Both the position numbers and the translations under genes were made by a program. Of a stretch of DNA of 64,000 bases, positions 9,692 through 61,871 are shown one piece after another. The stretch's first letter is position 1; each line of letters opens with the position of its first letter. The stretch comes from Escherichia coli (GTDB taxonomy: Bacteria > Pseudomonadota > Gammaproteobacteria > Enterobacterales > Enterobacteriaceae), in the NCBI RefSeq assembly GCF_030013595.1, contig NZ_CP122768.1. One strand, written 5' to 3'. The notes below the pieces were generated by a model that was not told where the DNA came from, ran no database searches, and worked only from the letters and a program-made list of their open reading frames with translations.

Positions 9692-9847
9692 ATGAAGCAG
9701 CAAAAGGCGATGTTAATCGCCCTGATCGTCATCTGTTTAACCGTCATAGTGACGGCACTGGTAACGAGGAAAGACCTCTGCGAGGTACGAATCCGAACCG
9801 GCCAGACGGAGGTCGCTGTCTTCACAGCTTACGAACCTGAGGAGTAA
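9692..9847 (+). CDS. hokD: Hok-family type I toxin HokD (RelF), 51 aa
   Basis: Translation MKQQKAMLIALIVICLTVIVTALVTRKDLCEVRIRTGQTEVAVFTAYEPEE; below ORF-track size cut-off, found by reading. Confidence 0.8.
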   Translation: MKQQKAMLIALIVICLTVIVTALVTRKDLCEVRIRTGQTEVAVFTAYEPEE

Positions 9848-9915
9848 GAGACCCGGCGAGGGAGAAATCCCTCGCCACCTCTGATGTGTCAGGCATCCTC
9901 AACGCACCCGCACTT

Positions 9916-9945
9916 AACCCGCTTCGGCGGGTTTTTGTTTTTATT
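9916..9945 (+). terminator. Rho-independent terminator after relBE-hokD
   Basis: AACCCGC-TTCG-GCGGGTT hairpin followed by a T-run. Confidence 0.6.
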
Positions 9946-10063
9946 TTCAACGCGTTTGAAGTTCTGGACGGTGCCGGAATAGAATCAAAAATACTTAAGT
10001 AGCGCGCAGGGATAAGAGGGATGGTCCCTTAAAGGGGAGAGCTAATTATCCGGAAGGATTCTG

Positions 10064-10315
10064 ATGATGAACATCGAAGAACTGCGTAAAATTTTTTGTG
10101 AAGATGGCCTCTATGCTGTGTGCGTTGAAAATGGAAATCTTGTTAGTCATTACCGCATTATGTGTTTGCGAAAGAATGGGGCTGCGTTAATTAATTTTGT
10201 GGATGGTCGAGTGACAGACAGATTTATCTTGCGCGAAGGTGAGTTTGTCACTTCATTACAGGCACTGAAAGAGATCGGAATAAAAGCAGGCTTTTCAGCT
10301 TTTGCAGAAGAATAA
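10064..10315 (+). CDS. rem: Rem-like small prophage protein (83 aa)
   Basis: 83-aa ORF MMNIEELRKIFCEDGLYAVCVENG... at the position of rem between hokD and ydfU. Confidence 0.55.
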   Translation: MMNIEELRKIFCEDGLYAVCVENGNLVSHYRIMCLRKNGAALINFVDGRVTDRFILREGEFVTSLQALKEIGIKAGFSAFAEE

Positions 10316-48827: not shown

Positions 48828-48963
48828 CTCACTGTTCCTCAACGCTTTTGTGTGTCAATAACATAGCACGTGATGCTTAAGAGCGGGTAATACTGGTTTG
48901 CAAGATTGCACTCCGTTATCAGTAAGCCTACGCTATGGAACACCTCGCGTTCAGGAGAAGAAA

Positions 48964-51009
48964 ATGACAACAATGAATCCTTTCCTTGTGCAAAGCACAC
49001 TGCCGTATCTGGCTCCCCATTTTGATCAAATTGCCAATCATCACTATCGCCCGGCATTCGATGAGGGAATGCAGCAAAAGCGGGCAGAAATTGCTGCCAT
49101 CGCGCTTAACCCGCAAACACCTGATTTCAACAATACTATTCTGGCACTGGAACAAAGCGGAGAATTACTTACCCGCGTTACCAGCGTCTTTTTTGCGATG
49201 ACTGCGGCGCATACTAATGATGAATTACAGCGTCTTGATGAACAGTTTTCCGCTGAACTGGCGGAACTGGCTAATGATATCTATCTGAACGGTGAATTAT
49301 TCGCGCGGGTAGATGCTGTCTGGCAACGCCGTGAATCCCTGGGACTTGATAGTGAATCCATCCGCCTGGTGGAGGTCATTCATCAACGTTTTGTCCTTGC
49401 CGGAGCCAAACTTGCACAAGCTGATAAAGCAAAATTAAAAGTCCTGAATACAGAAGCTGCGACCCTGACCAGCCAGTTTAACCAGCGGTTACTGGCAGCA
49501 AATAAATCCGGCGGTCTGGTTGTGAACGATTTCGCGCAGCTGGCAGGAATGAGTGAGCAAGAGATTGCGCTGGCGGCAGAGGCGGCTCGCGAGAAAGGTC
49601 TGGATAACAAATGGCTGATTCCGTTGCTGAATACCACCCAGCAACCAGCGCTTGCTGAACTGCGCGATCGCGCGACGCGTGAAAAACTGTTCACTGCGGG
49701 CTGGACGCGAGCGGAAAAAAATGATGCCAATGATACCCGCGCTATCATTCAACGTCTGGTGGAGATCCGCGCGCAGCAGGCGAAACTGCTTGGTTTCCCT
49801 CATTATGCCGCATGGAAAATCGCCGATCAGATGGCAAAAACGCCAGAAGCAGCACTCAACTTTATGCGGGAAATTGTTCCAGCGGCGCGTCAACGTGCGA
49901 GCGATGAATTAGCCTCCATACAGGCGGTTATCGATAAGCAGCAGGGCGGGTTTAGCGCGCAGCCGTGGGACTGGGCATTTTATGCCGAGCAGGTAAGACG
50001 TGAGAAATTCGATCTCGATGAATCGCAGCTCAAGCCATATTTTGAATTAAACACGGTGTTGAATGAAGGTGTATTCTGGACCGCGAATCAGCTCTTCGGT
50101 ATTAAGTTTGTCGAACGTTTTGATATTCCTGTCTACCATCCTGACGTTCGTGTATGGGAAATTTTTGATCATAATGGCGTGGGGCTGGCGTTATTTTACG
50201 GTGATTTCTTCGCCCGTGATTCAAAAAGCGGCGGTGCATGGATGGGCAATTTTGTTGAGCAATCAACGCTTAATGAAACGCATCCGGTAATTTATAACGT
50301 CTGCAATTATCAGAAACCCGCTGCCGGTGAGCCTGCGTTGTTACTCTGGGATGATGTCATAACCTTATTCCATGAATTTGGTCATACGTTGCACGGCCTC
50401 TTTGCCCGCCAGCGTTATGCCACACTTTCCGGCACCAACACGCCGCGTGATTTTGTCGAATTTCCGTCGCAAATCAACGAACACTGGGCAACGCATCCGC
50501 AGGTATTCGCTCGCTACGCCCGGCATTATCAGAGCGGGGCAGCAATGCCTGACGAACTGCAACAGAAAATGCGTAATGCCAGCCTGTTCAATAAAGGGTA
50601 TGAGATGAGCGAACTGCTTAGCGCCGCACTTCTCGATATGCGCTGGCATTGCCTGGAAGAAAACGAAGCAATGCAGGATGTCGATGATTTCGAATTGCGG
50701 GCGCTGGTGGCAGAAAATATGGATCTTCCCGCTATACCGCCACGCTATCGCAGCAGTTATTTCGCCCATATTTTTGGTGGCGGATATGCCGCAGGTTATT
50801 ACGCTTATCTGTGGACGCAAATGTTGGCCGATGATGGTTACCAGTGGTTTGTTGAGCAGGGCGGATTAACGCGTGAAAATGGGCGGCGTTTTCGCGAGGC
50901 GATTCTTTCCAGAGGTAACAGCGAAGATCTGGAACGCCTGTATCGACAATGGCGCGGTAAGGCACCTCAGATTATGCCGATGCTGCAACATCGTGGCTTG
51001 AACGTATAA
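48964..51009 (+). CDS. dcp: Peptidyl-dipeptidase Dcp (M3 metallopeptidase)
   Basis: 681 aa from MTTMNPFLVQS... after AGGAGAAG; HEFGH zinc motif. Confidence 0.9.
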   Translation: MTTMNPFLVQSTLPYLAPHFDQIANHHYRPAFDEGMQQKRAEIAAIALNPQTPDFNNTILALEQSGELLTRVTSVFFAMTAAHTNDELQRLDEQFSAELAELANDIYLNGELFARVDAVWQRRESLGLDSESIRLVEVIHQRFVLAGAKLAQADKAKLKVLNTEAATLTSQFNQRLLAANKSGGLVVNDFAQLAGMSEQEIALAAEAAREKGLDNKWLIPLLNTTQQPALAELRDRATREKLFTAGWTRAEKNDANDTRAIIQRLVEIRAQQAKLLGFPHYAAWKIADQMAKTPEAALNFMREIVPAARQRASDELASIQAVIDKQQGGFSAQPWDWAFYAEQVRREKFDLDESQLKPYFELNTVLNEGVFWTANQLFGIKFVERFDIPVYHPDVRVWEIFDHNGVGLALFYGDFFARDSKSGGAWMGNFVEQSTLNETHPVIYNVCNYQKPAAGEPALLLWDDVITLFHEFGHTLHGLFARQRYATLSGTNTPRDFVEFPSQINEHWATHPQVFARYARHYQSGAAMPDELQQKMRNASLFNKGYEMSELLSAALLDMRWHCLEENEAMQDVDDFELRALVAENMDLPAIPPRYRSSYFAHIFGGGYAAGYYAYLWTQMLADDGYQWFVEQGGLTRENGRRFREAILSRGNSEDLERLYRQWRGKAPQIMPMLQHRGLNV

Positions 51010-51373
51010 ACACCACCAATGGCTGGCCTGGATTTATCGCCAGACCAGCCTCGTTATAGCAGTAATTGCAGCAGCTGGGTGAGGGCAAACTTCACCGCTA
51101 ATGCGAATGCCGTTTCGCAGTCGCCAGCAAAATTACTTTTTTTGTATACCCTTCCGTTATAATAATTTTCAAATTTATAAATCTGATTGTTCTGAAATAT
51201 GTTTAAGACTCTTTAATCTTCTTCTTACTTTAGTGAGTTAAATTCTCTTAATATTTGACAGCTAGTTGCCTGATTTTAAATGCCTTATAACAATTGGCAG
51301 TATTCTTATTTGTCAATTATAAAAATAGCAACCAGACTTAATAAGTCAAACCAAACGCAATTAAGGAGTCAGT

Positions 51374-51766
51374 ATGAAATTTCAGGCCATTGTATTAGCA
51401 AGTTTTCTTGTCATGCCTTATGCGTTGGCAGATGACCAGGGCGGATTAAAACAGGATGCAGCGCCACCGCCGCCTCATGCAATAGAAGATGGCTATCGCG
51501 GAACCGATGATGCAAAAAAAATGACCGTTGATTTCGCAAAAACCATGCATGATGGCGCTTCGGTTTCACTACGCGGTAATTTGATTTCTCACAAAGGAGA
51601 GGACCGTTACGTTTTTCGCGATAAGAGCGGTGAAATTAATGTTGTTATTCCTGCGGCAGTCTTTGATGGACGAGAAGTTCAGCCGGACCAGATGATCAAC
51701 ATTAGCGGTAGTCTGGATAAGAAAAGCGCTCCGGCCGTCGTTCGGGTCACTCATTTGCAGAAATAA
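51374..51766 (+). CDS. ydeI: OB-fold periplasmic protein YdeI (YgiW/BOF family)
   Basis: 130 aa with signal peptide [19 protein letters not shown]. Confidence 0.8.
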
Positions 51767-51803
51767 AAATAAATTAGCCTGATGGCCTGAACTACTGGGC
51801 CAT

Positions 51804-51835
51804 TAGGTTATTGGGTTATTGGGTTATTGGGTTAT
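51804..51835 (+). repeat. Short tandem repeat (GGGTTATT, about 3.5 copies)
   Basis: aggttattgggttattgggttattgggttat downstream of ydeI. Confidence 0.5.
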
Positions 51836-52036
51836 GCTATTTGTCATCCTTTTAATTGCGATAATGCAGGCTTAATTTACAGAATTAAACACTTTTTTAT
51901 CTGCTGATTTTGTTTCAAATCACAATGTTATCTCAGAGGTGATTCATAACTTCGGATTTCTATGAAAATATTGACGTAATTTTGCTTTTCTCTCGTTAGA
52001 ATAGCGCGCACAAGGAACTGTGAAAAAGGAGTGGCA

Positions 52037-52927
52037 ATGATCAAGAAGACAACGGAAATTGATGCCATCTTGTTAAATCTCAATAAGGCTATCGATGCCC
52101 ACTACCAGTGGCTGGTAAGTATGTTTCGCAGCGTAGTCGCGAGAGATGCCAGTAAGCCAGAAATAACGGATAACCATTCTTATGGACTGTGCCAGTTTGG
52201 TCGGTGGATTGATCATCTGGGACCACTCGATAACGATGAATTACCTTATGTTCGGCTAATGGATTCTGCCCATCAACATATGCATAACTGTGGTCGGGAA
52301 TTAATGCTGGCTATTGTTGAAAATCACTGGCAGGACGCGCATTTCGACGCCTTTCAGGAAGGGTTGCTTTCTTTTACTGCGGCATTAACCGATTACAAAA
52401 TTTATTTGCTGACGATCCGTAGCAATATGGATGTTTTGACGGGATTGCCGGGTCGTCGGGTTCTTGATGAATCCTTTGATCATCAGTTACGCAACGCTGA
52501 GCCTCTGAATCTTTATTTAATGTTGTTGGATATTGACCGATTTAAATTGGTTAATGATACCTACGGGCATTTAATCGGCGATGTAGTATTACGCACCCTG
52601 GCAACTTACTTAGCCAGTTGGACGCGCGATTACGAAACGGTTTATCGCTACGGTGGCGAAGAATTTATCATTATTGTCAAAGCGGCTAATGATGAAGAAG
52701 CATGTCGTGCAGGTATCAGAATTTGCCAGTTAGTCGATAACCATGCCATCACACATTCTGAAGGGCATATCAACATTACTGTGACAGCAGGTGTGAGTCG
52801 CGCATTTCCTGAAGAGCCTCTGGATGTGGTCATTGGAAGAGCGGACCGGGCAATGTATGAGGGTAAGCAAACCGGAAGAAATCGCTGTATGTTTATTGAC
52901 GAACAAAACGTGATTAACCGAGTTTAA
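52037..52927 (+). CDS. dgcZ: Zinc-sensing diguanylate cyclase DgcZ (YdeH)
   Basis: 296 aa MIKKTTEIDAILLNLNKAIDAHYQWL... with GGEEF motif (RYGGEEFIII). Confidence 0.85.
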   Translation: MIKKTTEIDAILLNLNKAIDAHYQWLVSMFRSVVARDASKPEITDNHSYGLCQFGRWIDHLGPLDNDELPYVRLMDSAHQHMHNCGRELMLAIVENHWQDAHFDAFQEGLLSFTAALTDYKIYLLTIRSNMDVLTGLPGRRVLDESFDHQLRNAEPLNLYLMLLDIDRFKLVNDTYGHLIGDVVLRTLATYLASWTRDYETVYRYGGEEFIIIVKAANDEEACRAGIRICQLVDNHAITHSEGHINITVTAGVSRAFPEEPLDVVIGRADRAMYEGKQTGRNRCMFIDEQNVINRV

Positions 52928-55693: not shown

Positions 55694-56392
55694 TTATCGC
55701 GGGAAAAAGTACTTTACCTGGAACTCGAAAATATTGCTGTAAAGTAACGAATAATCCAGCGGAATAGAGTTACTGTCCACAGCCTGGGTCTGAATTTTAA
55801 GTATGGGATCCCGTGGGCTGATCCGTAAAATACTGGCGATTTCTGGGGTAGGAAAAGTAGGGGAGAAAGTTTCAAAGGTGCCAATGATTTTGATCCCGCA
55901 TTCGTTCTCAATATACGAAAATTTGGATTTTTGCATATGTGCTACGGTTAAATCAGGAAAACGTGCCACTGACATCCACGTTTCTTCTAATTGTGCTGCA
56001 TTATCCTCAATGAATCGCAGTCTCTTTATGTAATAAACCTGCTCACCAGTCACTAAATTCAGCTCAGTCGCAATAGGGGGAGAAGCATCCTGCACTTCAA
56101 ATTTCATAATCTGACTTCCTGCCTCCTTGCCGCTTTTATGCGCAATTTCACTGAAGCTGTTCATGTGATCAATGTGTGCAACAAAATTCTTTTTTTGAAT
56201 ATATGTTCCTGAACCATGCTTTCTATGAATAATTCCTTCGCCTTCCAGCAAGGATAATGCCTTACGCAGGGTATTACGCGAAACATTATAACGAACAGCG
56301 AGTTCAGCTTCTGACGGCAACAAATCACCAACATGCCATGAATAGCCATTGATCTCGGATTTAAGTAAGCGGGCAATCTTTTGAAAAATCAC
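55694..56392 (-). CDS. GntR-family regulator (HTH plus UTRA-like effector domain)
   Basis: 232 aa; GntR HTH (ELAVRYNVSRNTLRKALSLLEGEGII); divergent from a PTS operon. Confidence 0.8.
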   Translation of the reverse strand: MIFQKIARLLKSEINGYSWHVGDLLPSEAELAVRYNVSRNTLRKALSLLEGEGIIHRKHGSGTYIQKKNFVAHIDHMNSFSEIAHKSGKEAGSQIMKFEVQDASPPIATELNLVTGEQVYYIKRLRFIEDNAAQLEETWMSVARFPDLTVAHMQKSKFSYIENECGIKIIGTFETFSPTFPTPEIASILRISPRDPILKIQTQAVDSNSIPLDYSLLYSNIFEFQVKYFFPR

Positions 56393-56590
56393 TTTTGCAC
56401 CTTTTAAGAGCCATTGAAAACAAGGAGTTGAGTCCTGATTGGTTTATCGTATGGCCGAGTCGTTTAATTATTACCCTGATGTTGAACAACTTTATTGCTG
56501 TATTACTGTGATCAATGTACCAGGACGTATAGCTACTGCGGGATATGATATTTACACAATGTAATCTGTTATATACCAGTAAGGGAAAAT

Positions 56591-56902
56591 ATGAAAAAGA
56601 TATTGTTAGTTTGCGCTGCGGGCATGTCAACCAGTATGCTGGTTAAACGTATGATTGATCATGCTAACGCTATTTCACTTGAAGTTAATATTTCCGCATT
56701 GGCGATTGCAGAGGCTAAAGGGAAAATTAAAAATAACGAAGTTGACGTTGTTTTACTTGGCCCGCAAGTTCGCTTTCAGAAACCAGAGATTGAAGCTGTT
56801 GCACAGGGGAAAATGCCTGTAGCTGTTATCGAGATGAAAGACTATGGCACCATGAACGGACAGGCAGTTCTTGAATTTGCGATGAAACTACTGCAAGAGT
56901 AA
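56591..56902 (+). CDS. PTS enzyme IIB, lactose/cellobiose family
   Basis: 103 aa MKKILLVCAAGMSTSMLVKRM... with catalytic Cys in CAAGMSTS. Confidence 0.85.
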   Translation: MKKILLVCAAGMSTSMLVKRMIDHANAISLEVNISALAIAEAKGKIKNNEVDVVLLGPQVRFQKPEIEAVAQGKMPVAVIEMKDYGTMNGQAVLEFAMKLLQE

Positions 56903-57016
56903 GAATCTAATATTATTAAACTATTACCTGAACTAACTTTTCACACATCATAAAATGGATATGGCATACATGCTTTATTGGGATGTATAAATATCCAGAA
57001 CAACAGGTATAAAAAA

Positions 57017-58339
57017 ATGGGATTAATGACCTCATTCGAACGTGGAATGGAACGTTTTCTTGTTCCAGTTGCTATCAAGTTAAACTCACAAAAACATGTT
57101 GCAGCGGTGAGAGATGGATTCGTTTTTACGTTTCCAATTATCATGGCAAGCTCATTAATTATATTAATAAACTTTGCCATATTATCGCCAGACGGCTTTA
57201 TTGCCGGACTGCTGCATCTGAACAGCGTTTTTCCCAACCTTGAAAAAGCACAAGCTATTTTTACTCCGGTAATGAATGGCTCTGTAAATATCATGTCAAT
57301 TATGATTGCTTTCCTGGTCGCCAGAAATATGGCGATTAGCTATGAGCAAGATGATCTTTTATGCGGATTAACGGCAATAGGAGCATTTTTTATTGTTTAT
57401 ACGCCATATCAGATGATAGATGGGCAAGCATTCCTGACGACCAAATATCTCGGCGCACAGGGGTTGTTTGTTGCTGTTATCGTTGCATTAATCACCAGTG
57501 AAATATTTTGTCGCTTAGCTCGAAACCCAAAAATCACCATAACGATGCCGGCAGCTGTACCTCCTGCGGTAGCGCGTTCATTTAAAGTTTTATTGCCAAT
57601 ATTTTTTGTCATGGTGTTCTTTTCCGCACTTAATTATTGCCTGACACTGATATCCCCGGCAGGATTAAACGATCTCATTTACACATTAATCCAGACGCCG
57701 CTCAAACATATGGGAACGAATATCTTTGCGGTAATTATCCTGGGAGCTGTGGGTAATTTCCTGTGGGTGCTGGGTATCCACGGACCTAATACCACGTCGG
57801 CAATTCGAGAAACTGTTTTTTCTGAGGCTAATCTGGAGAATCTCTCCTGGGCCGCTCAACACGGCACTACCTGGGGCGCGCCATATCCGATTACCTGGAC
57901 TTCTATTAATGATGCATTCGCCAACTGCGGCGGTTCAGGTATGACGTTGGGATTATTGTTGGCTATTTTTATCGCGTCTAAGCGTGCGGAATACCGTGAT
58001 CTGGCAAAAATGTCGTTTATCCCCGGTATTTTCAATATCAATGAACCGATAATGTTCGGCCTTCCTATTGTACTTAACCCCATCATGATGGTGCCGTTTA
58101 TTCTGGTTCCCATTGTTAATTGTGCCATTGGTTACTTCTTTGTTTCGATGGAAATTATTCCACCGGTTGCTTATGCCGTGCCCTGGACTACGCCCGGACC
58201 TTTAATTGCTTTCCTCGGAACCGGGGGAAACTGGCTGGCGTTACTGGTGGGTTTTTTATGTTTAGGTGTGGCGACAATGATCTATTTACCTTTTGTTATT
58301 GCCGCCAACAAGGTCAATAACATGACAACTAACGGATAA
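57017..58339 (+). CDS. PTS enzyme IIC, lactose/cellobiose family permease
   Basis: about 440 aa polytopic membrane protein; operon context IIB-IIC-IIA. Confidence 0.85.
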   Translation: MGLMTSFERGMERFLVPVAIKLNSQKHVAAVRDGFVFTFPIIMASSLIILINFAILSPDGFIAGLLHLNSVFPNLEKAQAIFTPVMNGSVNIMSIMIAFLVARNMAISYEQDDLLCGLTAIGAFFIVYTPYQMIDGQAFLTTKYLGAQGLFVAVIVALITSEIFCRLARNPKITITMPAAVPPAVARSFKVLLPIFFVMVFFSALNYCLTLISPAGLNDLIYTLIQTPLKHMGTNIFAVIILGAVGNFLWVLGIHGPNTTSAIRETVFSEANLENLSWAAQHGTTWGAPYPITWTSINDAFANCGGSGMTLGLLLAIFIASKRAEYRDLAKMSFIPGIFNINEPIMFGLPIVLNPIMMVPFILVPIVNCAIGYFFVSMEIIPPVAYAVPWTTPGPLIAFLGTGGNWLALLVGFLCLGVATMIYLPFVIAANKVNNMTTNG

Positions 58340-58366
58340 TCCCATTTACACAGGAAGGAGATGTTG

Positions 58367-58678
58367 ATGTTTGCAGATGAAGAACTTGTTATGGAGTTAC
58401 TGATCAACGCGGGACAGGCACGTTCTGATGCGATGGAAGCCATACGTTGTGCCGGGCAAAAAGACTGGCAGGGCGCAACTCAGCTAATGGCCAGTTCGGA
58501 ATTAGCCTGTCTTCAGGCACATAAGATTCAGACCGCGTTAATTAGTCAGGATGAAGGTTGTGGCAAAATAGAAGTTAATTTAATTCTGGTTCATGCACAG
58601 GATCATTTGATGAATGCAATATTATGCCAGGATTTAGCCAGGGAAATTATTTCATTAAGAAAAGAGCTCCATCCCTGA
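58367..58678 (+). CDS. PTS enzyme IIA, lactose/cellobiose family
   Basis: about 103 aa MFADEELVMELLINAGQARSDAMEAIR...; ATG 6 nt after AGGAAGGAG. Confidence 0.8.
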   Translation: MFADEELVMELLINAGQARSDAMEAIRCAGQKDWQGATQLMASSELACLQAHKIQTALISQDEGCGKIEVNLILVHAQDHLMNAILCQDLAREIISLRKELHP

Positions 58679-58730
58679 TTTTTTCCTCCAGTGCGATAGC
58701 TGGAGGAAATTATTACACTCTTAAGGATAA

Positions 58731-61871
<3,141 letters not shown>

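Follow-up and report, generated by a model that had tools for sequence, protein, structure and literature searches.

The short interval between dcp and ydeI in this Escherichia coli genome is, with a probability of about 97%, the scar of a single old deletion of 475 bp that removed most of ydeJ, the gene that separates dcp and ydeI in strain K-12. The gene is not wholly absent, as had at first appeared, but is truncated to a dead tail. The strain cannot make YdeJ, and the genes on both sides of the scar, dcp and ydeI, are intact.

The window, i.e. the whole stretch of DNA that was analysed, comprises 64,000 nucleotides. Exactly 364 bp (51010-51373) lie between the stop of dcp at 51009 and the start of ydeI at 51374, and the ORF list contains no frame of 60 aa or more in this interval, only chance ORFs of 38-51 aa, in agreement with what the initial annotation had reported. 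Neighbouring genes are dgcZ and ydeE downstream and ydfG and rspR upstream. A 1.4-kb query covering window positions 50500-51900 is 100% identical to the corresponding regions of the closed swine isolates EC556, EC571 and EC581, and it has matches in 5,418 of 5,426 complete genomes of E. coli. For dcp, the coordinates are those of EC556, which has 100% identity here; the mechanical ORF begins at an upstream TTG at 48898. The features of the locus are the following:

48964-51009, plus strand: dcp, encoding peptidyl-dipeptidase Dcp, intact (NF007624 equivalog, 1490 bits), the left edge of the interval
51021-51050, no strand assigned: GC-rich hairpin in the gap where the 3' ends of dcp and the ydeJ remnant converge (by folding)
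51054-51132, minus strand: 3' remnant of ydeJ (pseudogene), last 26 codons plus stop, 93.7% identity to K-12 ydeJ
51132/51133, no strand assigned: junction of the 475-bp deletion (by pairwise alignment and distance calculation)
51133-51373, no strand assigned: 241 bp left over from the divergent ydeI-ydeJ spacer, which today make up the entire region upstream of ydeI
51174-51677, no strand assigned: segment kept in the window and lost elsewhere by a 504-bp deletion (by ST131 annotation, alignment and junction counts)
51374-51766, plus strand: ydeI, encoding a YdeI/BOF family stress-tolerance OB-fold protein of 130 aa, intact (NF007471 equivalog, 259 bits), the right edge of the interval

The initial annotation had suggested, with a proposal to check this by alignment, that a CinA-like gene ydeJ is located between ydeI and dcp in K-12. 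The annotation of MG1655 indeed gives the order ydeI (b1536), ydeJ (b1537, PF02464 family protein YdeJ) and dcp (b1538). When the proposed comparison was carried out, the distance between ydeI and dcp in K-12 was found to be 837 bp versus 364 bp in the window, so the short interval is not a property that K-12 shares. Pairwise alignment of the two regions gave one gap of 475 bp with collinear flanks. The missing DNA corresponds to positions 9739-10213 of the K-12 locus (L001), which comprise 35 bp upstream of ydeJ and bases 1-440 of its 519 bases. The sequences that meet at the junction share a microhomology of at most 1 bp (T), and the placement of the breakpoint is thus ambiguous by 1 bp. No IS sequence, terminal inverted repeats, target-site duplication or foreign bases were detected at this junction. 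A deletion mediated by an insertion sequence or another mobile element was considered and rejected, the junction being clean. Because there is almost no microhomology and no mobile-element sequence was left behind, the loss of the 475 bp would be explained by a simple event of illegitimate recombination or slippage.

The 79 bp of ydeJ that remain are in frame with the C-terminus of the K-12 protein and translate to NFAGDCETAFALAVKFALTQLLQLLL followed by the stop. The start codon, the 5' part and the CinA domain are all missing, with codons 1 to about 147 gone. When compared with the NCBIfam model NF002972, the remnant matches profile positions 147-172 only, with E=3.3e-6 and a score of 26.9 bits as against a cut-off of 201, and a Pfam search of the remnant returned no match, thus no PF02464 CinA domain. 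An ORF of about 172 aa scoring above the NF002972 cut-off, as is to be expected for a functional ydeJ, is not present in the window, and neither is a second copy of the gene, as judged by tblastn against all 64 kb. The description of the interval as non-coding and devoid of ydeJ therefore holds for most of the gene, but not for this 3' tail. The locus and the orientation are as in K-12: the remnant is flanked by ydeI and dcp, converges with dcp and lies 44 bp past the dcp stop, and its 26 codons are homologous to the end of K-12 ydeJ; what differs is that b1537 is a full gene for a CinA/PncC-domain protein. Collinear flanks and a single gap that takes out the 5' part of the gene, an intact gene in the outgroups and a junction common to many genomes mark the remnant as a pseudogene. 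Several of its substitutions affect residues that are conserved from K-12 to Salmonella, namely V to A and L to F (a 'VL' pair that became 'AF') and the R of 'VRFALA', which is replaced by K. There are also lineage-specific changes, A to T in the window and L to R in ST131. This pattern would fit drift or decay after inactivation. In the genome of EC556, PGAP annotates an 81-bp pseudogene (QUE77_RS04800; 'incomplete; missing N-terminus') that is equivalent to window positions 51054-51134 and does not differ from the window remnant in position, strand or sequence. The ydeJ pseudogene has in fact already been annotated by PGAP in hundreds of RefSeq genomes; it is not new, and represents a routine gene-content polymorphism.

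On both sides of the remnant, parts of the original arrangement are preserved. Folding of positions 51005-51065 gave -18.2 kcal/mol on the plus strand (z -3.2) and -26.6 kcal/mol on the minus strand (z -4.3), and the hairpin at 51021-51050 is probably a bidirectional terminator stem that was retained, even though its stem is not followed by a T-run and a terminator scan of 50950-51450 gave no site. The remaining spacer is 96.7% identical to K-12 over the 121 bp proximal to ydeI (51253-51373) and 91.4% identical over 51193-51252, whereas the 60 bp on the junction side (51133-51192) have strongly diverged, with 81.7% identity. An identity that falls toward the junction would be in line with relaxed constraint on the side of the former ydeJ promoter, which we regard as suggestive since the AT-rich spacer appears to be prone to indels in general. 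This is illustrated by strain 23AR0998 (L007 3848-4067), which has an independent deletion of 55 bp in the ydeI-ydeJ spacer, at about window positions 51245-51299, while both genes are intact; the deleted segment is flanked in K-12 by a direct repeat TATTTG.

The YdeI protein encoded in the window shows no differences from that of K-12 over its 130 aa. Since the proximal promoter region is conserved as well, ydeI is expected to be still functional and its expression to be unaffected. No RNA family was found when positions 50900-52100 were compared with Rfam at E<=1, and a promoter consensus scan returned two promoter-like matches on the minus strand, which is chance level (2 found versus 1.4 expected). 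The regulator RcdA binds the ydeI-ydeJ spacer and alters expression of ydeI under some conditions; its box is TTGTnnACA, and its footprint on this spacer is unpublished (PMC3535384). The K-12 spacer has a sole RcdA-box-like site, TTGTCCACG, which has one mismatch and falls within the 35 bp that were deleted. In the window, another site, also with one mismatch, is found at 51142-51150; such matches are at chance level, as about 0.65 one-mismatch sites are expected in 241 bp when both strands are counted. The deletion may have had a regulatory side-effect on ydeI through loss of the K-12 site, with the reservation that this match, too, is at chance level.

Some further differences were noticed in the surroundings of the locus. 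Between ydeI and dgcZ, at 51802-51835, an 8-bp tandem repeat ATTGGGTT is present in 4.2 copies; the same repeat has two units fewer in the ST131 genome, and its copy number thus varies among strains. The region from eamA to marB (55694-61871) contains six ORFs that are absent from K-12, where the distance between these two genes is 30 bp. In the annotation of the closest genome, they encode a GntR regulator, the IIB, IIC and IIA components of a PTS of the lactose/cellobiose type, a carbohydrate porin and a 6-phospho-beta-glucosidase.

The distribution of the deletion was surveyed in 5,426 complete RefSeq E. coli genomes. By megablast, the deleted 475-bp segment is matched in 3,618 of these, K-12 and O157:H7 included. 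An interval of the window type, with at least 80% of the 364 bp covered in one collinear piece, occurs in 769 genomes, and 1,039 genomes have, inside one 100-bp stretch, the ydeJ junction together with a second one in ydeI. The three counts add up to exactly 5,426, from which we infer that the alleles are disjoint and exhaustive. Consequently, ydeJ is lost in 1,808 of the complete genomes, or about one third. The 50-bp sequence of the ydeJ junction occurs in 1,629 complete genomes or more, which is a lower bound because megablast requires an exact word of 28 bases, and the identity of the junction in all of these argues for one origin of the deletion. In a few of the genomes counted as having the K-12-type segment, the match is split over two separate places, with a best coverage of 53% (NZ_CP091691.1, H60, strain KMi006); such two-part matches suggest that ydeJ may have been interrupted there by an insertion, as a third independent route to inactivation.

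The second junction results from a deletion of 504 bp, which was located in an ST131 genome and is equivalent to window positions 51174-51677. It takes away 200 bp upstream of ydeI and codons 1-101, leaves ydeI as a 90-bp pseudogene (L006 3164-3253), and has breakpoints with 2 bp (TT) of microhomology. Strains labelled O25b:H4-ST131, an ST131 isolate, E2348/69 and ABU 83972 are in this double-deletion class; these strains belong to phylogroup B2. The allele of ST131, E2348/69 and ABU 83972 is identical to that of the window in its ydeJ junction and remnant haplotype; it differs in that the ydeI promoter and codons 1-101 are gone, whereas ydeI of the window is intact. Since all genomes counted with the ydeI junction carry the ydeJ junction too, the deletion in ydeJ came first and the truncation of ydeI second. 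The window carries the intermediate allele of a series of three, in which the locus is intact, has lost ydeJ, or has lost ydeJ and has a truncated ydeI.

Such a series raises the question whether removal of YdeJ was selected, with the later truncation of ydeI in B2 strains as a continuation of the same remodelling. The allele is old, it became fixed in large lineages, and a second deletion then occurred next door. Furthermore, a phenotype is known for Salmonella, where the YdeJ orthologue was renamed RdsA: its deletion raises negative supercoiling, and its promoter is itself supercoiling-sensitive (PMC7387798). On the other hand, the E. coli protein is a single-domain CinA/PncC paralogue that has no NMN deamidase activity and is described as belonging to a mildly decayed lineage (PMC3855486), and the spacer is prone to indels in general, as shown by strain 23AR0998. 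We consider an adaptive loss unlikely. The more specific proposal that stepwise loss of ydeJ and then ydeI represents selected remodelling of a stress/supercoiling module, rather than neutral decay, is derived from the pattern of sequential loss, and we regard it as quite improbable; if it were true, the strain studied here would stand between the two end states, and its supercoiling set-point would be altered.

The direction of change can be deduced from related species. A contig that we call E. fergusonii-type, as one of its encoded proteins is assigned to E. fergusonii by NCBI (L003), has the order marRAB-eamA-ydeE-dgcZ-BOF(ydeI)-CinA(ydeJ)-Peptidase_M3(dcp)-ydfG. On a Salmonella enterica contig (L005) the order is BOF-CinA-(small KGG-domain gene)-Peptidase_M3. 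The small gene between ydeJ and dcp in Salmonella (L005 5648-5830) encodes a KGG-domain protein of 60 aa, and has no counterpart at the E. coli and E. fergusonii-type loci. Because the ydeJ remnant implies a loss and both outgroup contigs keep the CinA gene in place, the intact ydeI-ydeJ-dcp arrangement is to be regarded as ancestral and the deletion in the window as derived. The reverse scenario, in which the short interval is ancestral and ydeJ was gained by insertion in K-12-type strains, could draw on the B2-type strains, which lack the gene and are often considered to branch early in the E. coli tree. It would leave unexplained, however, that an in-frame 3' fragment of ydeJ is present in the window, that the gene occupies the same position in the E. 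fergusonii-type and Salmonella contigs, and that the boundaries in K-12 show neither extra sequence nor repeats. Outgroup synteny and the remnant together refute a gain by insertion, which we consider highly improbable.

It is equally improbable that ydeJ was moved to another place in the genome instead of being lost, since genomes that match the deleted 475 bp number only 3,618 and the two deletion classes make up the complete remainder of the sample, and since the window has no other copy. An assembly or sequencing artefact is practically impossible and is refuted by the population data, as the full 364-bp interval is common to 769 independent complete genomes and the junction to at least 1,629, and several closed genomes match the 1.4-kb query with 100% identity.

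The deletion scenario can thus be outlined as follows. In the ancestor, ydeJ would have separated ydeI from dcp, being transcribed toward dcp and away from ydeI. One event of illegitimate recombination or slippage would then have removed the upstream 35 bp, the start and the first 440 of the 519 bases of ydeJ. It would have spared the dcp/ydeJ terminator hairpin, a tail of 79 bp from which no functional protein can be made, and 241 bp of spacer that still serve ydeI. The resulting allele, probably inherited, is common and forms the middle of a three-step series across E. coli.

The name under which YdeJ appears in databases deserves comment. In RefSeq, UniRef and NCBIfam NF002972, the family is called '2-oxo-tetronate isomerase' (K-12 ydeJ, L001 9774-10292), whereas Pfam identifies YdeJ as a CinA/PncC-domain protein (PF02464). 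The experimentally validated 2-oxo-tetronate isomerase of E. coli is b2739, which is a different gene (PMC12506659, Table 2), and we found no paper that backs this name for YdeJ. It may be a propagated misnaming. The possibility suggested by the PGAP label that a threonate-utilisation island was lost here was rejected, the label being simply the NCBIfam name of the YdeJ family.

That 1,808 of the 5,426 complete genomes of E. coli have lost ydeJ shows that natural strains can do without it. The three alleles at the dcp-ydeI locus could serve as a marker that aids lineage typing. Furthermore, results obtained with YdeJ/RdsA or YdeI of K-12 should be extended to the species with caution, as major pathogenic lineages are without one or both of these genes.
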